The notes: generated by a model not told the origin, from the sequence alone. A stretch of 64,000 bases of DNA from an uncultured virus (IMG/VR IMGVR_UViG_3300010342_000180) (IMGVR_UViG_3300010342_000180), one strand, 5' to 3'. Positions 4,084 through 13,222 are shown, counted from the first letter of the stretch. A program made the numbers and translations.

Positions 4084-4167
4084 ATGAAAATATTACTCGA
4101 CATATTATCAATTTTTGAGGATAATCATCTATGGGATGATGAGGATAAATTATGTTTAGTCAGGTAA
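4084..4167 (+). CDS. Putative attenuator leader peptide, Asp/Glu-rich (MKILLDILSIFEDNHLWDDEDKLCLVR)
   Basis: 27-codon ORF between promoter and terminator with 5 Asp and 2 Glu codons, including GAT GAT GAG GAT. Its 3' part is complementary to the terminator's 5' arm. Confidence 0.75.
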   Translation: MKILLDILSIFEDNHLWDDEDKLCLVR

Positions 4168-4195
4168 ATTAATCTATTATATTCTTTTTTACACT

Positions 4196-4231
4196 AAAAA
4201 AACCCGACTACATAAATTAGTTGGGTTTTTT
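4196..4231 (+). terminator. Intrinsic terminator (attenuator) upstream of tRNA-Asp/Glu
   Basis: AACCCGACTA-cataaat-TAGTTGGGTT followed by a T tract. Confidence 0.8.
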
Positions 4232-4238
4232 GTTCTTT

Positions 4239-4314
4239 GATATATATAGGAATTTAGTGGTTATCCTCTATGGCTGTCGACCAGAAGACTCCAGTTCGAT
4301 TCTAGAATAGACCG
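4239..4314 (+). pseudogene. Degenerate tRNA-Asp(GTC)
   Basis: Anticodon arm TATGG-ctGTCga-CCAGA, T arm TCCAG-TTCGATT-CTAGA, 3' ATAGACC plus G73. The acceptor, anticodon and T stems all carry mismatches. Confidence 0.65.
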
Positions 4315-4346
4315 CTCGACTTATTTTTTTTTTCTCATGTATTTTT

Positions 4347-4418
4347 GCTCTCATCGTCTAACGGTTAGGACGGCAGGTTTTCATCCTGTAAATAGCGGTT
4401 CAATTCCGCTTGGGAGTA
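4347..4418 (+). tRNA. tRNA-Glu(TTC)
   Basis: GCTCTCA/TGGGAGT acceptor, GCAGG-ttTTCat-CCTGT anticodon arm, GGTTCAATTCC T arm; no encoded CCA. Confidence 0.93.
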
Positions 4419-4448
4419 CAAACATTTGGGGCACACGTAACGTGCAAT

Positions 4449-4994
4449 CTATATAAAAGTGAACGATAATTGATCATCAGTATAACTCAATTTATTATTA
4501 ATAATCTTAGCAGGTTTTGTATATTGGTGATCTTCTATTTTATTGACATCCATAATATGCAAGACATTCCATCCAATTGATTTTAAATAATCAGATATCA
4601 AAGAACGATGACAACGCCACCACACAGCTTCAGAACACACATATACCGTATTTTGAGTTAATGCAATTTTTTCTAATTCAGTTATTCCATTTTGAAAAGA
4701 TTCGGTTTCCATATAATCGGCATATGCACGAAACGATAAATTACGCCAAGATGTGTTTGTGGAATATGGATTAGATTTTCGTCTGCCGCCCAAATTTTTC
4801 ATATGAACATATTGAATATTATGTTTAGGTAAGATAATTTCTAGATTTTCTTTATTAAAATGTGGAAATTTCCTCGAACCTGGGAAACTTCTCACATCAG
4901 CTACACACTTCATTTGAAACAATTTTAAAATAGAAATGAATTCTTCGATGTTACGAGTAGAATGTCCAATTGTCCATATTTGAGAATGTTTCAT
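4449..4994 (-). CDS. DUF488 family protein
   Basis: Motifs IWTIGHSTR, DVRSFPGSRKFPHFN, LGGRR, CSEAVWWRCHRSLI. Confidence 0.85.
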   Translation of the reverse strand: MKHSQIWTIGHSTRNIEEFISILKLFQMKCVADVRSFPGSRKFPHFNKENLEIILPKHNIQYVHMKNLGGRRKSNPYSTNTSWRNLSFRAYADYMETESFQNGITELEKIALTQNTVYVCSEAVWWRCHRSLISDYLKSIGWNVLHIMDVNKIEDHQYTKPAKIINNKLSYTDDQLSFTFI

Positions 4995-5070
4995 AATATA
5001 TAATTGTATTAATCATTTTACAAATATAATATAAAAAAAATGCAAAAACCTAATTATTTTAATAAAATTA

Positions 5071-5964
5071 TTAATCTAATCCCACTCTAAGAGTTTCCTG
5101 AACTCTTAACATCATTTGATATTCATCTGCAGTTATATCATCAGCAAAATAATTAATGGGATTAACTGTTTTACCACGATAAATAACTTCATAATGAAGA
5201 TGATCTCCTGTAGATATACCGGTATTTCCAACAGTACCAATAATTTGACCTCGCACTACTTTTTGACCTTTACGAACTCCAATACTATTTAAATGTCCAT
5301 ATGCTGTTTCATAATCATATCCATGATTTATTTTAACATAATTTCCATATCCTAAATTTTTACCCGCCATTTCAACTATACCATCAGCGGTAGCATATAC
5401 TGGTGTTCCTACTGGAGCAACAAAGTCCATACCGTAATGAAATTTATTAATTTTATATATTGGATGAATTCTATAACTATATCCGGATGATATTCTCTTA
5501 AAATCTTTTTTTGCTACGGGTTGAATTGCAGGATAATGCCTCATTTTATCATCACTCGATATTATTTTATTAATCATATTTTTAAACCTATTAGCATTAT
5601 ATTCGATTGTACGACCAATGTTATCAAGTTTATCATTAACAGTTTCAGGTGTAATTATTGTTAATTCACTTTCATGACTATCAAATGCATCAATAATTAT
5701 ACTATCTTTTTGTTGTAATGTTTGTAATAAATAATATATTCCATCGGCTTTTTTATCTATAATATATAAATCATATTCTAATTTATTAATTTCTTTTTTT
5801 AATTTAATTTCTTTCGGGGTATTAAAAAAAACAGAAAGTAAAAAAATTAACCCAATTGTAATGATAAGTTGAATAAGAATATAAATCAAAATAGTCTTAA
5901 AATTTAAAACTATTTTATCATATTGTAATTTAATTTTATTAAATTTATATATTGGTAGTTTCAT
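5071..5964 (-). CDS. M23 family peptidoglycan peptidase with N-terminal membrane anchor
   Basis: HYGMDF, GYGNYVKINHG, YGHL and STGDHLHYEV motifs; TM segment near the N-terminus. Confidence 0.9.
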   Translation of the reverse strand: MKLPIYKFNKIKLQYDKIVLNFKTILIYILIQLIITIGLIFLLSVFFNTPKEIKLKKEINKLEYDLYIIDKKADGIYYLLQTLQQKDSIIIDAFDSHESELTIITPETVNDKLDNIGRTIEYNANRFKNMINKIISSDDKMRHYPAIQPVAKKDFKRISSGYSYRIHPIYKINKFHYGMDFVAPVGTPVYATADGIVEMAGKNLGYGNYVKINHGYDYETAYGHLNSIGVRKGQKVVRGQIIGTVGNTGISTGDHLHYEVIYRGKTVNPINYFADDITADEYQMMLRVQETLRVGLD

Positions 5965-6107
5965 ATATTAATAAGTATTTTCAAAAATTTTCCAGTAAAT
6001 ATAATTTTTTAGTGTATAAATGAAAATTTTTTCCATAGAGAACCATTTATAAGAAAATTTTTTCCATTAAAGACCACAACAATAAAAATAAAATTTTTTT
6101 CAAAACA

Positions 6108-6139
6108 TTTGGTATTTATAAAAACATTACTTATATTTG
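6108..6139 (+). promoter_or_regulatory. Bacteroidota sigmaA-type promoter for tRNA cluster 2
   Basis: TTTG (6108-6111), 20 nt, TATATTTG (6132-6139). Confidence 0.8.
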
Positions 6140-6164
6140 TATCGGATTTTAATTGGTTAATACG

Positions 6165-6239
6165 ATGAAAACTTTAATGACATTACAACTCCGTCCATTA
6201 CAACATCCAGAATTGGGTGAGTGGGAGAGCCGTATCTAA
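6165..6239 (+). CDS. Putative attenuator leader peptide (MKTLMTLQLRPLQHPELGEWESRI)
   Basis: 24-codon ORF; the run TTA CAA CTC CGT CCA TTA CAA CAT CCA matches the downstream tRNA-Leu(TAA), Gln(TTG), Pro(TGG) and His(GTG). Confidence 0.8.
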   Translation: MKTLMTLQLRPLQHPELGEWESRI

Positions 6240-6273
6240 AGGTTTTTGTCAAGTAGATGGTTTTAGACTGAAC

Positions 6274-6303
6274 AACCCCACTCCAATTAAAAGTGGGGTT
6301 TTT
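6274..6303 (+). terminator. Intrinsic terminator (attenuator) upstream of tRNA cluster 2
   Basis: AACCCCACT-ccaattaaa-AGTGGGGTT plus T tract. Confidence 0.8.
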
Positions 6304-6318
6304 CGTTCTTTGAAATAT

Positions 6319-6366
6319 TGTCCTTATTGTAATTCGCAATTATTAACAACTTGTCGAAATAAGAAA
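6319..6366 (+). pseudogene. HNH endonuclease C-terminal relic
   Basis: Translates CPYCNSQLLTTCRNKK, like the CPNCHSQT..RN tail of phage HNH proteins. Confidence 0.4.
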
Positions 6367-6396
6367 ACACACTTGTAGCTCATTCAAAAAAACTAT

Positions 6397-6469
6397 CGGG
6401 TATTAGTTCAGTTAGTAGAATGCTAGTTTTGGGAACTAGTGGTCGCTGGGGCAGGACCAGCATACCCGA
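6397..6469 (+). tRNA. tRNA-Pro(TGG), non-canonical T loop
   Basis: CGGGTAT/ATACCCG acceptor, CTAGT-ttTGGga-ACTAG anticodon arm, T arm GCTGG-GGCAGGA-CCAGC. Confidence 0.85.
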
Positions 6470-6475
6470 CTATAT

Positions 6476-6550
6476 GGTGCTTGTAGCTCAGCCTGGTAGA
6501 GCGCTTGTCTGTGGAACAAGAGGTAGTGAGATCGAAGCTCACCTAGCACC
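6476..6550 (+). tRNA. tRNA-His(GTG)
   Basis: G-1 and C73 present; CTTGT-ctGTGga-ACAAG anticodon arm; T arm GTGAG-ATCGAAG-CTCAC. Confidence 0.88.
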
Positions 6551-6556
6551 CAAAAC

Positions 6557-6610
6557 TGTCTTATGGTGTAACTAGTAATACGCTTGACTATGGATCAAGA
6601 AAGTAGAGGT
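6557..6610 (+). pseudogene. Truncated tRNA (Gln-like 5' half, anticodon ATG)
   Basis: TGTCTTA-TGGTGTAA D arm and CTTGA-ctATGga-TCAAG anticodon arm; no T arm or 3' acceptor strand. Confidence 0.55.
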
Positions 6611-6669
6611 TTCTTAACTGTTTAAGAAAACTCACAAAAAAAAAACAAATTTTAGTTCTTTGAAATTAT

Positions 6670-6971
6670 GCCGAAGTGGTGGAATTGGTAGACACGCAGG
6701 ACTTAGTTCGAAATGAGGAAAAAACAAATTGAGTGCTCTTTCTGAAAAGAGAGAAGTAGAATTCCGTAAATTCGGTGAAGGCTTAACTGCTAATACCGAG
6801 CCAATCCTGGATGTTCAGGAAGGTGTAGAGACTAGACACGGAATACCTAAGTCAAAAGATATGGTAAAGGTATAGTCCAGACCACAAACAATTAATGGTA
6901 ACGAAAGTTATAGTGGTACGAAAATCCTGTGGCCAGTAATGACCGTGTGGGTTCAAGTCCCATCTTCGGTA
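6670..6971 (+). tRNA. tRNA-Leu(TAA), intron-containing (exons 6670-6704 and 6921-6971)
   Basis: GCCGAAG/CTTCGGT acceptor. Splicing restores CAGGA-ctTAAaa-TCCTG; long variable arm; GGGTTCAAGTCCC T arm. Confidence 0.92.
6705..6920 (+). ncRNA. Group I self-splicing intron (IC3-like, 216 nt) in the tRNA-Leu anticodon
   Basis: Inserted after U34 and ends in omega-G. Core elements AAATTCGGTGAA (P), AATACCGAGC (Q), GTAGAGACTAGA (R), AAGGTATAGTCC (S). Confidence 0.9.
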
Positions 6972-6978
6972 CAAATTT

Positions 6979-7050
6979 ACCCTTGTAGTGTAACGGCTAA
7001 CACACCAGGTTTTGGTCCTGGAAATCTTGGTTCGAGTCCAGGCGAGGGTT
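6979..7050 (+). tRNA. tRNA-Gln(TTG)
   Basis: ACCCTTG/CGAGGGT acceptor, CCAGG-ttTTGgt-CCTGG anticodon arm, GGTTCGAGTCC T arm. Confidence 0.92.
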
Positions 7051-7073
7051 TCTTAACTGTACTGTAAAAATGA

Positions 7074-7219
7074 TGGCATGGAGAAAAAATATCTCTAATA
7101 TTAGATCATAAAAATGGTATTCATAATGATAATAGAATTGAAAACCTAAGAATATTTGTCCTAATTGTAAGGCTACACCTCCAACACATTGCGGTAAAAA
7201 TAATAAAAACAAAAAATAA
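7074..7219 (+). pseudogene. Frameshifted HNH endonuclease remnant
   Basis: ISLILDHKNGIHNDNRIENLR, then a frameshift, then CPNCKATPPTHCGKN. Confidence 0.75.
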
Positions 7220-7254
7220 ATTTGGAAAATTCATAATTTCTTTTTATCTTTGTT

Positions 7255-7527
7255 TTGTTTAATTTAAAAATGATATGTGGGATGGGTCAGAAATTTTATT
7301 CGGAAATAGGAGAACGAGATGTTCTCAGTCCAAAAATTTTAAAGATTTCGAAAGAATGTATAAAAGATCGAAGAAGAATTTATATTCCTGAACTTCGTCT
7401 TATTGCGTATAGTAAAGCAAATGAAACAATTGAAGAAACAAGGCGAAGATATTTCAGGAATACTCTTACTTTTCGTAATTTGGCAAATTCAGATAAAAAT
7501 AATGATAAAAATAAAACTGGAAAATAA
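7255..7527 (+). CDS. Hypothetical protein
   Basis: ORF follows a TTTG...TATCTTTG promoter; the true start may be ATG 7270. Confidence 0.5.
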   Translation: MFNLKMICGMGQKFYSEIGERDVLSPKILKISKECIKDRRRIYIPELRLIAYSKANETIEETRRRYFRNTLTFRNLANSDKNNDKNKTGK

Positions 7528-10215: not shown

Positions 10216-11141
10216 TTATATAATAATTTTCATTAAATACTTTATTTCTGTAATTTGATTTTCTAATCCAATTTTTTTAATAATTTCTATAGCCTGATCT
10301 TTTGTTAAATTTGGATTTTCATACCAAGCATCTTGAACAGCATTTTTTATTTTACCAATTAATGGTCCATTATTAATATTTAATATTTTTTTAATATTAT
10401 TCCCATCAATTGGTAATTTCACTTCAAAATTTCCTGTATTTAAATTTTCGATACGATTTTTAATATTTTTAATTTGATTTGGCATTGACGCAGCATCTGA
10501 ATGTGATACATTATCTGCATGAATAAGATCTAATATATCATTCATATTTGAATATTTTTTAATATTTGGTAATATATTATCATCAAAATTAAAATTATAT
10601 TTAACAGCAAATCTAATTGCTCTTAGCATTCTTAAAGGATCATCTTGATAAATAATTTTAGGGTCTGATGGCGTTCGAATTATACCTAATTTTAAGTCAG
10701 AAATTCCATTTCCGTAAGATCTAATATTTCATTAGTAGAAACATTACGCATAAGAGTATTTATCGTTAAATCTCTTCTTAATACGTCATCCATTAAAACA
10801 CCACTTGTGACTTCAGGTTTTTTAGATCCACTTTTATATTTTTCTTTTCTTGGTGCGACAAATTCTATATCAATATTATCATACAAAAGTTTAGCTGTAC
10901 CATAATCTGGAAATATCACAGGATTACTTCCATCTTTAAAAATGTTCCATTTTTTTGATAACCAAATAGAAAAGTCAATTCCGGATGAAATATCACCATC
11001 AACAATAAAATCCAAATCTTTTGGCGGTTTACCCATTACTTGATCTCTCACAGCACCACCAACAAGAAAAACCTTATTTTCCCATTCAGTATTTTTTATA
11101 GTTTGTTTTATAAACTCTAAAACCTGTTCTTCATATGTCAT
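10216..11141 (-). pseudogene. cca: CCA-adding tRNA nucleotidyltransferase, frameshifted and internally shortened
   Basis: VGGAVRD, DLDF, RRDLTIN, then a 1-nt deletion near 10712. The other frame continues GISDLKLGIIRTP...DDPLRMLRAIRFA. The ERI/HD region appears absent. Confidence 0.8.
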
Positions 11142-11215
11142 ATGGATTTTATTATATAAATATTGTTTTTTTAAATTAAAAGTATTACATTTGCTATTAC
11201 ATATAATATTGGTAA

Positions 11216-12754
11216 ATGAGTAACACAATTAGCGTAGTTATTTCTACACGAAAAAAAGATGATAATTTTTATCAACACATAAAAAAGGCACTTTCACATC
11301 CTAAAAGTGAAATATTACTATACGAAAATGATGGTCAATTTTCGTTGGCCGAAGTTTATAATAAAGGACTGGAAGAAAGTAAAAATGAAATTGTGCTTTT
11401 TATGCACGATGATATTATTATTAAAACAACTAATTTAACACATAAAATAATTAAATTATTTGAAAAATTTCCTGATTATGGGATTATTGGGGTCGCTGGT
11501 ACAACTGATTTAGTAAATGGAAAATGGTGGGAAATTAAAAAATCTATGCATGGTAAGGTTTCGCACACTAAAGATGGTAAAACATGGACTAATAAATATT
11601 CAAAAGAATCATATATTGATATTTTAAAAGATGTTGTTACTATTGATGGGTTGTTTTTTATAGTAAATAAATCTAAAATTAAAAAACAATTTGATACAGA
11701 TTTTGAAGGGTTTCATTTCTACGATATTCCATTCTGTGTTTCTAACTATATTGAGGGTGTTAGAATTGGTGTAACGACTAAATTCGATATTATACATAAA
11801 TCTATTGGTGAAACAAATGAACAATGGGAAATAAATAAAAAACAATTTGAAGAAAAATTTAAAGATATTCTTCCTATTAAAATGACCAATAATAAAAGTC
11901 TGGCAGAAAAAATGAATTATTCGAAAAATAGTATTGGCGTTGGTATGGTAACATATAATAATCCATATAGAATAAAAGAATCATCATTTACAATTCCCAG
12001 TTGGATAGAACACTTTGTTATTGTTAATGATGGAACACCATACGATCCCTCAGTTTATCCTAAACATGCTCATATTATACAACATCCATACAATAAATCT
12101 GTTGGACAAGCCAAAAATTCTGCAATGAAATATCTTCTGGAAAAAGGTTGTGAGCACATTTTTATAATTGAAGATGATATATTAATACAATCAGATGAGG
12201 TTTTCGACAAATATATAAAAGCATCTCTTTATTCTGGTATTAAACATTTAAATTATGCCTTGCATGGACCGGCAAATAAAAAGGGTGCTAAAGGGTTTGA
12301 AAATCTTGACGAAAGGGGACAACAAGATTATCTTACTGAGCCAAATCCAAAACAAATTATTAAATATACAGACGATATTCAAATTGCATTATATCCAAAC
12401 TGTGTTGGGGCATTTTCATATTATCAAAGAGAAGTATTAGAAACAATCGGATTATTTGATGAATTTTATAAAAATGCGTGGGAGCATGTTGATCATACAA
12501 TGAAAGCATATCAAAAAGGATTTACCACACCATATTGGTGGTTTGCAGATATCGGTGAATCATGGAAATATATAAAAGATATTGAAGGTTCAATACAAAA
12601 TTCAACTATTAGTCATGATGATAAATGGTCGGAAAATTTTAAACGAGGAATGAGACATTTTTATAATAAATTTGGTGCTGCACCAACACGGGTTCCTGAT
12701 GTAAATCCAGAATTAGTGAAACAAAATTTAAATTATTTATTTCATAATAGATAA
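11216..12754 (+). CDS. Two-domain GT-A glycosyltransferase (GT2-like)
   Basis: YNKGL..SKNEIVLFMHDD; FHFYD; second domain VNDG...HIFIIEDDI...GLFDEFY..AWEHVD. Confidence 0.8.
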   Translation: MSNTISVVISTRKKDDNFYQHIKKALSHPKSEILLYENDGQFSLAEVYNKGLEESKNEIVLFMHDDIIIKTTNLTHKIIKLFEKFPDYGIIGVAGTTDLVNGKWWEIKKSMHGKVSHTKDGKTWTNKYSKESYIDILKDVVTIDGLFFIVNKSKIKKQFDTDFEGFHFYDIPFCVSNYIEGVRIGVTTKFDIIHKSIGETNEQWEINKKQFEEKFKDILPIKMTNNKSLAEKMNYSKNSIGVGMVTYNNPYRIKESSFTIPSWIEHFVIVNDGTPYDPSVYPKHAHIIQHPYNKSVGQAKNSAMKYLLEKGCEHIFIIEDDILIQSDEVFDKYIKASLYSGIKHLNYALHGPANKKGAKGFENLDERGQQDYLTEPNPKQIIKYTDDIQIALYPNCVGAFSYYQREVLETIGLFDEFYKNAWEHVDHTMKAYQKGFTTPYWWFADIGESWKYIKDIEGSIQNSTISHDDKWSENFKRGMRHFYNKFGAAPTRVPDVNPELVKQNLNYLFHNR

Positions 12755-12810: not shown

Positions 12811-13199
12811 GGGGGTGACATGGTATTGATTGGCGTACAACGGATCAATGGGCAAGTGGTCAGATATCTTCTATGACTTAAAACTATGAAGGTAACATTT
12901 AAATGGCAACATTTATAAAAACATGGAAATTGCAGGTTTACTTGCAAAATCTAGCGTAGTAGCCTAATCTCAGAAAGGGCTCTACAAGGGGTCGGAAGAA
13001 CCTATCAACAGAATCTCCGAAGCTGATACTGCTTATAGTATCAAAAGTTGTTTGTGGCCCGTCTTAAACGAACCATCGAAAGTTGCGGATAACAATAGAG
13101 GCTGGAATCCGATATTTGTCGATTATGAATAATCGAATAAACTTGTAGTCCATTTATTCTTTGACGAGCAAGACTCGCGTTCGATTCGCGACACCTCCA
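12811..13199 (+). ncRNA. ssrA: tmRNA
   Basis: GGGGGTG/CACCTCC-A acceptor with G3-U70; T arm TCGCG-TTCGATT-CGCGA; tag frame 12905-12967 GNIYKNMEIAGLLAKSSVVA*. Confidence 0.9.
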
Positions 13200-13222
13200 C
13201 TAATTAATTTAAAGTCATTATG

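Follow-up and report, generated by a model that had tools for sequence, protein, structure and literature searches.

Positions 6108 to 6303 of the window, the whole 64,000-nt stretch of uncultured-virus DNA analysed here, are likely to form a leader-peptide attenuator through which ribosomes control the transcription of a phage tRNA operon, and the phage probably makes the tRNAs of this operon mainly when ribosomes read the codons of the leader slowly. The locus has the sequence anatomy of an attenuator, its RNA can adopt alternative pairings that are conserved and covary among relatives, and leader codons match the tRNAs of the cluster behind them across many loci. An attenuator interpretation had already been offered in a preliminary description of this DNA, and it is supported by the anatomy (ORF, codons in region 1, antiterminator, terminator and stop placement) together with the comparative result for tRNA-Arg(ACG) given below.

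Anatomy of the leader locus

The window is AT-rich, and the locus runs, in order, from a promoter through an ORF and a terminator to tRNA genes, with the following parts:

6108..6139, plus strand: promoter-like site, with TTTG at 6108-6111, 20 nt, and TATATTTG at 6132-6139, recognized from the sequence
6165..6239, plus strand: predicted leader ORF, with ATG at 6165, 24 codons and TAA at 6237-6239, peptide MKTLMTLQLRPLQHPELGEWESRI, kept in four relatives
6164..6175 and 6238..6249, plus strand: 5' strand (start-codon region) and 3' strand of the long-range helix P1, from the minimum-free-energy fold
6183..6209, plus strand: regulatory codons TTA CAA CTC CGT CCA TTA CAA CAT CCA, encoding L Q L R P L Q H P, assigned by comparing codons with the downstream tRNAs
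6189..6209, plus strand: region 1, which pairs with region 2 in the region 1:2 hairpin of the minimum-free-energy fold
6211..6229, plus strand: region 2, whose partner is either region 1 or the terminator 5' arm (antiterminator), from duplex energy and covariation
6274..6303, plus strand: intrinsic terminator, stem 6274-6282/6292-6300 (AACCCCACU/AGUGGGGUU), loop 6283-6291 and T run, -12.7 kcal/mol
6305..6316, plus strand: motif GTTCTTTGAAAT downstream of the terminator, with copies at 6655-6666 and 4232-4243
6317..6396, plus strand: spacer with probable remnants of lost tRNA genes, from weak local alignments to the tRNAs of relatives, which carry Arg(TCG) and Arg(ACG) here

The leader, the codon run and the complementary segments had all been placed correctly in the preliminary description. 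TTTG, 20 nt and TATATTTG make up what we take to be the Bacteroidota -33/-7 promoter consensus, and the same motif with the same spacing also stands upstream of the second leader of the window, of the tmRNA and of all related leaders. The ATG lies 25 bases downstream of the TATATTTG box, and no Shine-Dalgarno-like sequence is found upstream of the leader ORF. The GTTCTTTGAAAT motif occurs seven times in the window against 3.6 expected; G(T/C)TCTTTGA is kept 3' of the terminator in all 10 sequences of a related leader type (type B, below), and a close variant follows the terminator of the Leu leader of LR756501.

An Rfam scan of the leader returned no family, either at the gathering score or at E up to 10 (5900-7300). 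T-box riboswitch identity was considered as a candidate and rejected, there being no match to stem I, specifier loop or T-box in Rfam at the gathering score or at E up to 10 on 5900-7300.

tRNA genes behind the leader

Behind the terminator and spacer lie five intact or decayed tRNA genes:

6397..6469, plus strand: tRNA-Pro(TGG) with an unusual T loop, Rfam RF00005 at 50 bits, anticodon read from the alignment
6477..6551, plus strand: tRNA-His(GTG), ARAGORN and Rfam
6554..6632, plus strand: decayed tRNA-Gln(CTG), anticodon now ATG and 3' part lost, Rfam at 23.5 bits, below cut-off
6670..6972, plus strand: tRNA-Leu(TAA), with a group I-like intron of 216 nt (6705-6920) separating anticodon positions 34 and 35, ARAGORN -i
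6979..7050, plus strand: tRNA-Gln(TTG), ARAGORN and Rfam

ARAGORN with default settings does not call the tRNA-Pro(TGG) at 6397-6469. The intron in tRNA-Leu(TAA) reaches 41.1 bits against RF00028, below its gathering score of 50, and the decayed tRNA-Gln(CTG) is identical at 47 of 55 positions to the tRNA-Gln(CTG) of the related locus L299. All four tRNAs that had been expected to serve TTA, CAA, CCA and CAT, namely Leu(TAA), Gln(TTG), Pro(TGG) and His(GTG), are thus present, and Arg is indeed the only amino acid of the codon run that lacks one: CGT is there, with no Arg tRNA in the cluster. CTC likewise stands in the leader with no tRNA-Leu(GAG) behind it. Both Arg tRNAs and Gln(CTG) have been lost from this cluster, with CGT still in the leader. 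The preliminary description had suggested that 6369-6382 is a tRNA 5'-end stub left by a lost tRNA-Arg. The stub is real, and its stretch CTTGTAGCTCA (6372-6382) agrees at 11 of 11 positions with the 5' ends of Arg(ACG) and His alike, so that Arg is favoured by position only. The instance in the window is a partly decayed attenuator-tRNA locus.

Alternative RNA structures

As had been pointed out, AATTG (6211-6215) and GAGTGGG (6219-6225) are complementary to CAATT (6284-6288) and CCCACTC (6277-6283) of the terminator. In the window, the duplex of region 2 with 6274-6291 is worth -15.6 kcal/mol (RNAduplex) against -12.7 for the terminator hairpin, and in a narrower test none of 200 shuffled ORF 3' ends reached the observed -13.6. 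In the five leaders of the window's own type (type A), antiterminator/terminator energies are -15.6/-12.7 (window), -21.0/-21.7, -14.9/-18.8, -18.9/-18.8 and -26.1/-18.2 kcal/mol. Left to fold freely, the window leader forms the P1 helix, which encloses the 1:2 hairpin (6189-6209 with 6214-6229), plus the terminator, a fold seen in all five type-A leaders. Since the regulatory codons and the terminator 5' arm compete for the same segment, region 2, the layout is that of a classical four-region attenuator.

Compensatory changes accompany these pairings. A C-G pair of P1 in the window is G-C in the relative G002, and between regions 2 and 3 GAG/CTC (window and L299) becomes GAA/TTC (L256, L311 and G002), with the 3' arm of the terminator staying GAG. 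Type-A pairs were compared sequence by sequence; a MAFFT alignment of this type misaligns the terminator arms. For type B, RNAalifold pairs region 1, TTACTCGAC (codons 4-6), with region 2, GTCGGGTAA, which includes the stop codon, and adds a 14-pair terminator; region 2 of this type is approximately a duplicate of the terminator 3' arm. Pairing with region 2 also constrains certain regulatory codons, namely CCN and, in type B, TTA CTC GAC, so part of the amino-acid bias could be structural.

When a ribosome was modelled on the regulatory codons and the RNA was cut before the 3' arm, 2:3 pairing appeared in all five type-A leaders, and with the modelled ribosome at the stop codon it was absent. 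For full-length RNA with a modelled stalled ribosome, the terminator was still the optimum in four of the five, only G002 flipping, and the switch therefore needs a kinetic, co-transcriptional argument.

The competing segment recurs well beyond type A. In each of the 20 short ORFs with terminator among the matches listed from a metagenome scan (described below), a segment of the ORF pairs with the terminator 5' arm, the observed energy being reached by at most two of 200 shuffles in 12 of the 20. In the 18 listed leaders with tRNAs downstream, this segment either overlaps the stop codon or stops 0-10 nt short of it. The position of the stop would thereby let a terminating ribosome mask region 2, and would do so partly in the window, because its pairing segment ends 10-12 nt upstream of the stop.

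Related leaders and a predicted second attenuator

A metagenome scan with the shared promoter pattern gave at least 122 stretches, which a script filtered for a short ORF plus terminator. Among the matches listed there were 20 distinct cases, 18 of them with same-strand tRNAs behind. Two, L273 and L317, were dropped from the statistics: no tRNA was found in the 2,487 nt downstream of the 45-aa lipoprotein-like ORF and terminator of L273, and the sequence of L317 extends only 168 nt downstream. More such leaders surely exist beyond the matches listed, which contain five leader types in the clade of the window:

Type A (window, G002, L256, L299, L311): leader MKTLMTLQLRPLQHPELGEWESRI; tRNAs Arg, Pro, His, Gln, Leu(TAA)
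Type B (10 sequences, including window 4084-4231): leader MKKLLDILHNLLAADLLWADEDILRKVG; tRNAs Asp, Glu, several Leu, Ala, Trp
Type C: leader MKTMSIHMNSINWRRSSATMVGHAHIFS; tRNAs His, Trp, Ser(GCT), Ser(TGA), Asn, a Met-like CAT tRNA, Arg(ACG), Arg(TCT)
Type D: leader MKNISVAYYYEEEYRSQLVI; tRNAs Glu, Tyr
Type E: leader of 34 codons; tRNAs Pro, Asn, Lys, Ile, Ile, Cys, Trp, Val

At both leaders the sequence of L296 is the same as that of the window, and it does not count as an independent sample. Such a leader precedes both tRNA clusters of the window, both of G002, and the single ones of G001 and G003. In viral contigs, the pattern ATGAAAANTTTAATGACA gave at least 114 stretches; among the matches listed only the contig of L001 (contig G002) carries a true leader, MKSLMTQQPRHLQPQVEWGRYA, followed by a terminator and by Arg(TCG), Arg(ACG), Pro(TGG), His(GTG), Gln(CTG) and Gln(TTG). 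An exact search of viral contigs for the window terminator, the codon run and the type-A consensus gave no match.

The relatives bear directly on two expectations voiced for them beforehand, namely that they would retain tRNA-Arg(ACG) and a Leu tRNA reading CTC. The Arg(ACG) gene lies directly 3' of the terminator in all four type-A relatives (G002/L262, L256, L299 and L311), and Arg(TCG) is also present in three of them. The expectation of a Leu tRNA failed: none of the four type-A clusters has one that reads CTC, and since the corresponding codon is CCC (Pro) in all four relatives, CTC at 6189 is a local change of the window. CAG codons are missing in two of the four leaders whose cluster has Gln(CTG). 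The type-A leader ORF is conserved in the four relatives with an in-frame 6-nt indel and its stop position kept; the indels inside the aligned ORFs of types A and B are both multiples of three, and in type B the stop is fixed in position and varies in identity among TAA, TGA and TAG.

The type-B leader of the window belongs to a predicted second attenuator upstream of the first:

4084..4231, plus strand: second attenuator, with leader MKILLDILSIFEDNHLWDDEDKLCLVR at 4084-4167 and terminator at 4198-4231, from folding and relatives
about 4250..4315, plus strand: decayed Asp-like remnant
4347..4419, plus strand: tRNA-Glu(TTC)

The Asp-like remnant (4250-4315) gave no tRNA score at E up to 10. Ala codons occur together with tRNA-Ala in five of five relatives, and both are absent in the window, where the type-B leader keeps six Leu codons with no Leu tRNA in its cluster.

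Unrelated leaders in LR756501

LR756501 is a 735-kb uncultured phage, which we take to be the 735-kb record of the phage collection of Al-Shayeb et al. 2020, and it holds 66 tRNA matches in a few clusters. In the regions examined, four clusters have leaders that are unrelated in sequence to types A-E and share a promoter-like motif of their own:

M1: leader MNFRIINMIQEQMQQIQNLIGGTISY; tRNAs Met, Met, Gln(TTG), Gln(CTG)
M2: leader MNNILHINLLNSLCLLGIKLIG; tRNAs Leu(TAG), Leu(GAG), Leu(CAA), Leu(TAA), Leu(TAG)
M3: leader of 31 codons, rich in Ser, Lys, His and Phe; tRNAs Trp, Arg, His, His, Phe, Lys, Ser
M4: leader of 42 codons; 16 tRNAs for Arg, Thr, Val, Ala, Gly, Phe and Pro

The seven Leu codons of M2, ahead of five Leu tRNAs, cover all six synonymous ones, and in M4 22 of 23 consecutive codons are served by its own 16-tRNA cluster, with synonymous codons that differ by isoacceptor (GGC, GGA and GGG; ACA, ACG and ACC; GCC, GCA and GCG).

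Codon match between leaders and tRNA clusters

From codon 3 on, nine of the 22 codons of the window leader are read by the four downstream tRNAs, against 13.4% in long ORFs (binomial P 0.0013). With codon 2 as the starting point, the match is 9/23 in the ORF frame versus 3/22 and 2/22 in the other two. Over 17 leaders, which include related ones and are not independent samples, the match is 184/441 (0.42) in frame versus 61/424 (0.14) and 48/424 (0.11) out of frame, the ORF frame being the best in every leader. The clusters come mostly from ARAGORN calls, which miss odd tRNAs. When the share of codons served by the own cluster is set against long-ORF codon usage, binomial P lies between 7.6e-8 and about 0.01 in 14 of the 17, and the match is not significant in the other three: the type-B leader of the window (P 0.5), the type-E leader L315 (P 0.11-0.15) and M3 (P 0.28).

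Scoring one representative of each leader type against all nine clusters gave a 9 x 9 matrix in which the diagonal is the row maximum in nine of nine rows, and the true pairing is the best of all 362,880 permutations. The preliminary description had held that independent variation of leaders and tRNA content would speak against it; the first rank of the true pairing shows the opposite. As a control, the promoter-plus-ATGAAAA pattern has 13 matches in cellular genomes, none with tRNAs downstream.

Proposed mechanism and alternative explanations

Transcription would start a few bases 3' of the TATATTTG box, and a ribosome would translate the 24-codon leader while RNA polymerase advances, coupling of the two processes being assumed for the presumed Bacteroidota host. 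Fast decoding of 6183-6209 would bring the ribosome to the stop codon, where it would partly cover region 2, and the terminator would form and end the transcript at about 6303. If no ribosome were loaded, region 1 would pair with region 2 and the terminator would form as well. If a cognate charged tRNA were scarce, the stalled ribosome would mask region 1, regions 2 and 3 would pair, and the polymerase would read through into the tRNA genes. The codons so monitored, Leu TTA, Gln CAA, Arg CGT, Pro CCA and His CAT, would be of the kinds read by the tRNAs of the operon and its intact relatives, and a build-up of phage tRNAs would speed leader translation and shut the operon in a negative feedback. 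That the ORF is translated, that its translation is coupled to transcription, that stalling is the signal and that a feedback loop exists are all inferences of ours. The leader may act as an OR gate over several tRNA pools, as had been proposed, which agrees with the M2 and M4 leaders sampling one codon per isoacceptor.

An attenuator of this build could instead sense general translation status (ribosome availability, host shut-off, starvation or ribosome-targeting inhibitors), with the codon match secondary. The architecture would respond to any slowing of ribosomes in the leader, 58% of leader codons overall are unserved by their own cluster, and three of the 17 leaders are without a significant match; yet the leader of every cluster is a distinct one, enriched in the codons that this cluster serves, as the nine row maxima and the best of 362,880 permutations attest, down to all six Leu codons before the five Leu tRNAs of M2 and the 22 of 23 served codons of M4. 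A general sensor would have no need of codons so specific to each cluster, which makes this explanation unlikely. It is very unlikely that the reading frame and its terminator form an ordinary small-protein gene or an unrelated small transcript and that the tRNAs have independent expression (for example from a signal within GTTCTTTGAnAT), even though the peptide is rather well conserved inside each type, a conserved motif lies 3' of the terminators and also between tRNAs, and L273 has a short ORF and terminator with no tRNA behind. Against this stand the ORF segment near the stop, which duplicates the terminator 3' arm in every type with the stop 0-10 nt away, leader codons that track the downstream tRNAs across unrelated sequences, and the same-strand tRNAs behind 18 of the 20 such ORFs among the matches listed; besides, no TAnnTTTG box is found 3' of the motif.

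An RNA-only switch, in which the leader RNA binds tRNAs in a T-box-like manner or binds a protein and the reading frame is incidental, would draw on the fact that the terminator/antiterminator alternatives exist irrespective of translation. It is extremely improbable, however, as the codon match is confined to the ORF frame (0.42 versus 0.14 and 0.11), ORF indels are in frame with the stop position kept, no T-box or other Rfam family appears at E up to 10, and a T-box uses a single specifier codon, whereas the match here extends over as many as 23 in a row. The lack of an Rfam match and the frame-dependent signal together mean that the leader is not a T-box, and a ribosome-mediated attenuator is the reading that we retain.

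Genome context and RNA data

On its sequence features, we take the window to belong to a large phage whose host is of the Bacteroidota type. The 13 matches of the promoter-plus-ATGAAAA pattern in cellular genomes include nine in Bacteroidota, one in Chloroherpeton and one in Ignavibacteriales. The tRNA-Leu of the window with its intron matches LR756501 at 72.5% identity, and the neighbouring M23 peptidase matches two IMG/VR contigs at 75% and 69% identity, contigs of 34 and 22 kb that CheckV rates as 11% and 7% complete. PHROGs matches in the window comprise endolysin/peptidase, glycosyltransferases, tail-like proteins and thymidylate synthase, with no PHROGs match for about half of the 40 window ORFs scanned. 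DNA almost identical to the window is present in 11 runs of 10 studies, apart from three possible source runs, and anaerobic-digester or activated-sludge samples are among the settings of this phage.

In the metatranscriptome X15, the window is matched without a difference by low-depth contigs over 6166-6258, 6248-6326 and 6297-6398, of which the third stops where tRNA-Pro begins; libraries of this kind may contain DNA, and the contigs are a weak hint for the attenuator reading. One RNA-library contig lacks 6259-6296, a gap that may be artefactual, introduced at the hairpin by assembly or by reverse transcription. In four runs of low-depth contigs, no RNA record crosses the T run with 31 nt to either side of it. 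Libraries X16, X17 and X19 hold mostly tRNA parts of other organisms, and the flanking protein genes at 4470-6065 are without cover in the RNA libraries, an absence that is uninformative at such low depth.

Comparison with known attenuators

The thrL, ilvL/ivbL, leuL, hisL and trpL leaders have regulatory codons in region 1, mutually exclusive 1:2, 2:3 and 3:4 pairings, a terminator and a stop codon that lets the ribosome block region 2, and the thr and ilv leaders each sense several amino acids. To our knowledge, all leader-peptide attenuators described so far regulate amino-acid biosynthesis or aminoacyl-tRNA synthetase genes. The locus in the window has the leader ORF, the cognate codons, the terminator, the exclusive choice of 2:3 versus 3:4 plus 1:2, and the stop placement of such attenuators. 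It would regulate tRNA genes, not genes for amino-acid biosynthesis or an aminoacyl-tRNA synthetase, and we class it for this reason as a variant of leader-peptide attenuation rather than an ordinary member. With the enterobacterial attenuators of amino-acid operons it shares the four-region layout and the use of several amino acids per leader. Ribosome-mediated attenuation as such is treated in the abstract of PMC1183508. Whereas the enterobacterial leaders control biosynthetic enzymes, the phage leaders would control tRNA genes, so that slow decoding would be answered by more decoder and not by more amino acid. The phage leaders also differ in sampling up to about seven amino acids, often with one codon per isoacceptor, and in having a phage as carrier, a Bacteroidota-type promoter and no Shine-Dalgarno-like sequence.

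In pheM-pheST of E. coli, a leader-peptide attenuator stands before aminoacyl-tRNA synthetase genes. The likeness to the attenuators of synthetase genes (pheM-pheST and hisS) lies in the control of a component of the translation apparatus via stalling at cognate codons; theirs, however, govern one charging protein for one amino acid, whereas here the tRNAs themselves would be governed, and for many amino acids at once. A His leader upstream of hisS paralogues in bacilli appears in the available part of the attenuator survey PMC2965389, where neither "tRNA gene" nor "tRNA operon" occurs. Like a T-box, the phage leader would make read-through of an intrinsic terminator depend, via an antiterminator, on the status of tRNA; unlike the phage leader with its frame-dependent signal, a T-box binds uncharged tRNA by one specifier codon plus conserved sequence, without translation.

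The tRNA clusters of huge phages (Al-Shayeb et al. 2020, PMC7162821) represent the same setting, with many tRNAs, tmRNA and other translation genes. The available main text of that paper contains no occurrence of "attenuat", "leader" or "terminator" and leaves regulation of tRNA genes unaddressed. Full-text searches of the freely accessible literature gave no report of leader-peptide attenuation of tRNA genes.

Implications for phage tRNA genes

Why phages have tRNA genes at all has long been asked. Phage tRNA genes are usually explained by compensation for codon usage, replacement of degraded host tRNAs or escape from tRNA-cleaving defences, and we know of hardly any work on their regulation. 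Each leader would name the codons that the phage monitors, which would make the question of what phage tRNAs are for directly testable. With these leaders, leader-peptide attenuation comes to include non-coding RNA genes among its outputs, sensors that respond to many amino acids at once, and phages of Bacteroidota-type hosts among its carriers, and the leaders are compact natural parts for sensors of tRNA availability.

A further and more doubtful reading is that huge phages keep their tRNA operons under closed-loop, codon-resolved control, each leader serving as a test track with at least one codon for nearly every isoacceptor encoded, so that an operon would come on only when the host pool for any of these codons fails; the attenuators would then be sensors of host defence or of the shut-off state and not mere economy devices. 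If this were true, triggers could include cleavage of host tRNAs by anticodon-nuclease defence systems and a codon-usage mismatch in a new host. For the attenuator itself, a leader that measures the decoding speed of the very codons served by its operon would show that tRNA supply is a quantity regulated by the phage.

A motif behind the terminators

The sequence GTTCTTTGAnAT recurs three times in the window, lying directly 3' of the terminators of the attenuators and a few bases 5' of some tRNA starts:

4232-4243, GTTCTTTGAnAT
6305-6316, GTTCTTTGAnAT
6655-6666, GTTCTTTGAnAT

Copies also follow type-B terminators and precede several tRNAs of the related contigs G001, G002 and G003 and of L371, a stretch of the 735-kb uncultured phage LR756501; even this distant phage carries the motif. 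The motif might be a processing signal or a protein-binding signal.

At the terminator of the type-A attenuator, one low-depth contig of the RNA library X15 links 6258 to 6297, leaving out 6259-6296, which comprises the terminator 5' arm and loop; this skip may have arisen artificially at the hairpin, during reverse transcription or assembly.

Another short ORF, of 39 codons, precedes a terminator in L317 (2119-2314), a match left out of the leader statistics. Its antiterminator-like complementarity to the terminator is strong (-16.1 kcal/mol, reached by 0 of 200 shuffles), and the sequence covered 3' of the ORF and terminator spans only 168 nt.

An intron in tRNA-Leu(TAA) and other neighbors of the tRNA genes

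The phage tRNA-Leu(TAA) gene is split between anticodon positions 34 and 35, the classic position of the tRNA-Leu intron in cyanobacteria and plastids:

6670-6972, tRNA-Leu(TAA) gene
6705-6920, group I-like intron within it

The intron scores 41 bits against RF00028, below the gathering score of 50, and its counterpart in LR756501, within L371 6018-6308, is 205 nt long. In the intact relatives L256 and L311, which carry a type-A leader, tRNA-Leu(TAA) is uninterrupted.

Directly 3' of the tRNA cluster, at about 7080-7200, lies a short frame with NGIHNDNRIENLRI, which resembles part of an HNH homing endonuclease. A 700-nt gene insertion separates two tRNA-Glu genes of G003 (L002 ~7250-6620, minus strand). 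Farther along the window is a tmRNA gene with the promoter type of the leaders, without leader ORF or attenuator:

12811-13202, tmRNA gene (Rfam, 73 bits), tag peptide GNIYKNMEIAGLLAKSSVVA

Protein-coding genes

Two neighboring ORFs, one with a GGAVRD...DLDF motif and the other with an HD-like tail, resemble the two parts of a nucleotidyltransferase of the CCA-adding enzyme / poly(A) polymerase type, and this putative gene may be split or frameshifted:

10216-10629, minus strand, ORF
10692-11228, minus strand, ORF

A long run of nucleotide-sugar epimerase, dehydrogenase and glycosyltransferase genes, matched in PHROGs, occupies 24400-47100; its size is unusual among phages, and its products may serve in modification of the surface or of the DNA.

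Suppressor-type and decayed tRNA genes

ARAGORN called three suppressor-type tRNAs in LR756501 (L376 2086, L376 2164 and L373 5668), of which two carry the anticodon CTA and one carries TTA. They would be predicted to decode TAG and TAA, a hint that stop codons may be reassigned late in infection.

The window itself holds two decayed tRNA genes:

4250-4315, Asp-like tRNA remnant, GTC loop present, no tRNA score
6554-6632, former tRNA-Gln(CTG), anticodon now ATG, T arm gone

These two remnants and the absence of Arg, Leu and Ala tRNAs show that tRNA genes kept by relatives are being shed in this phage lineage.
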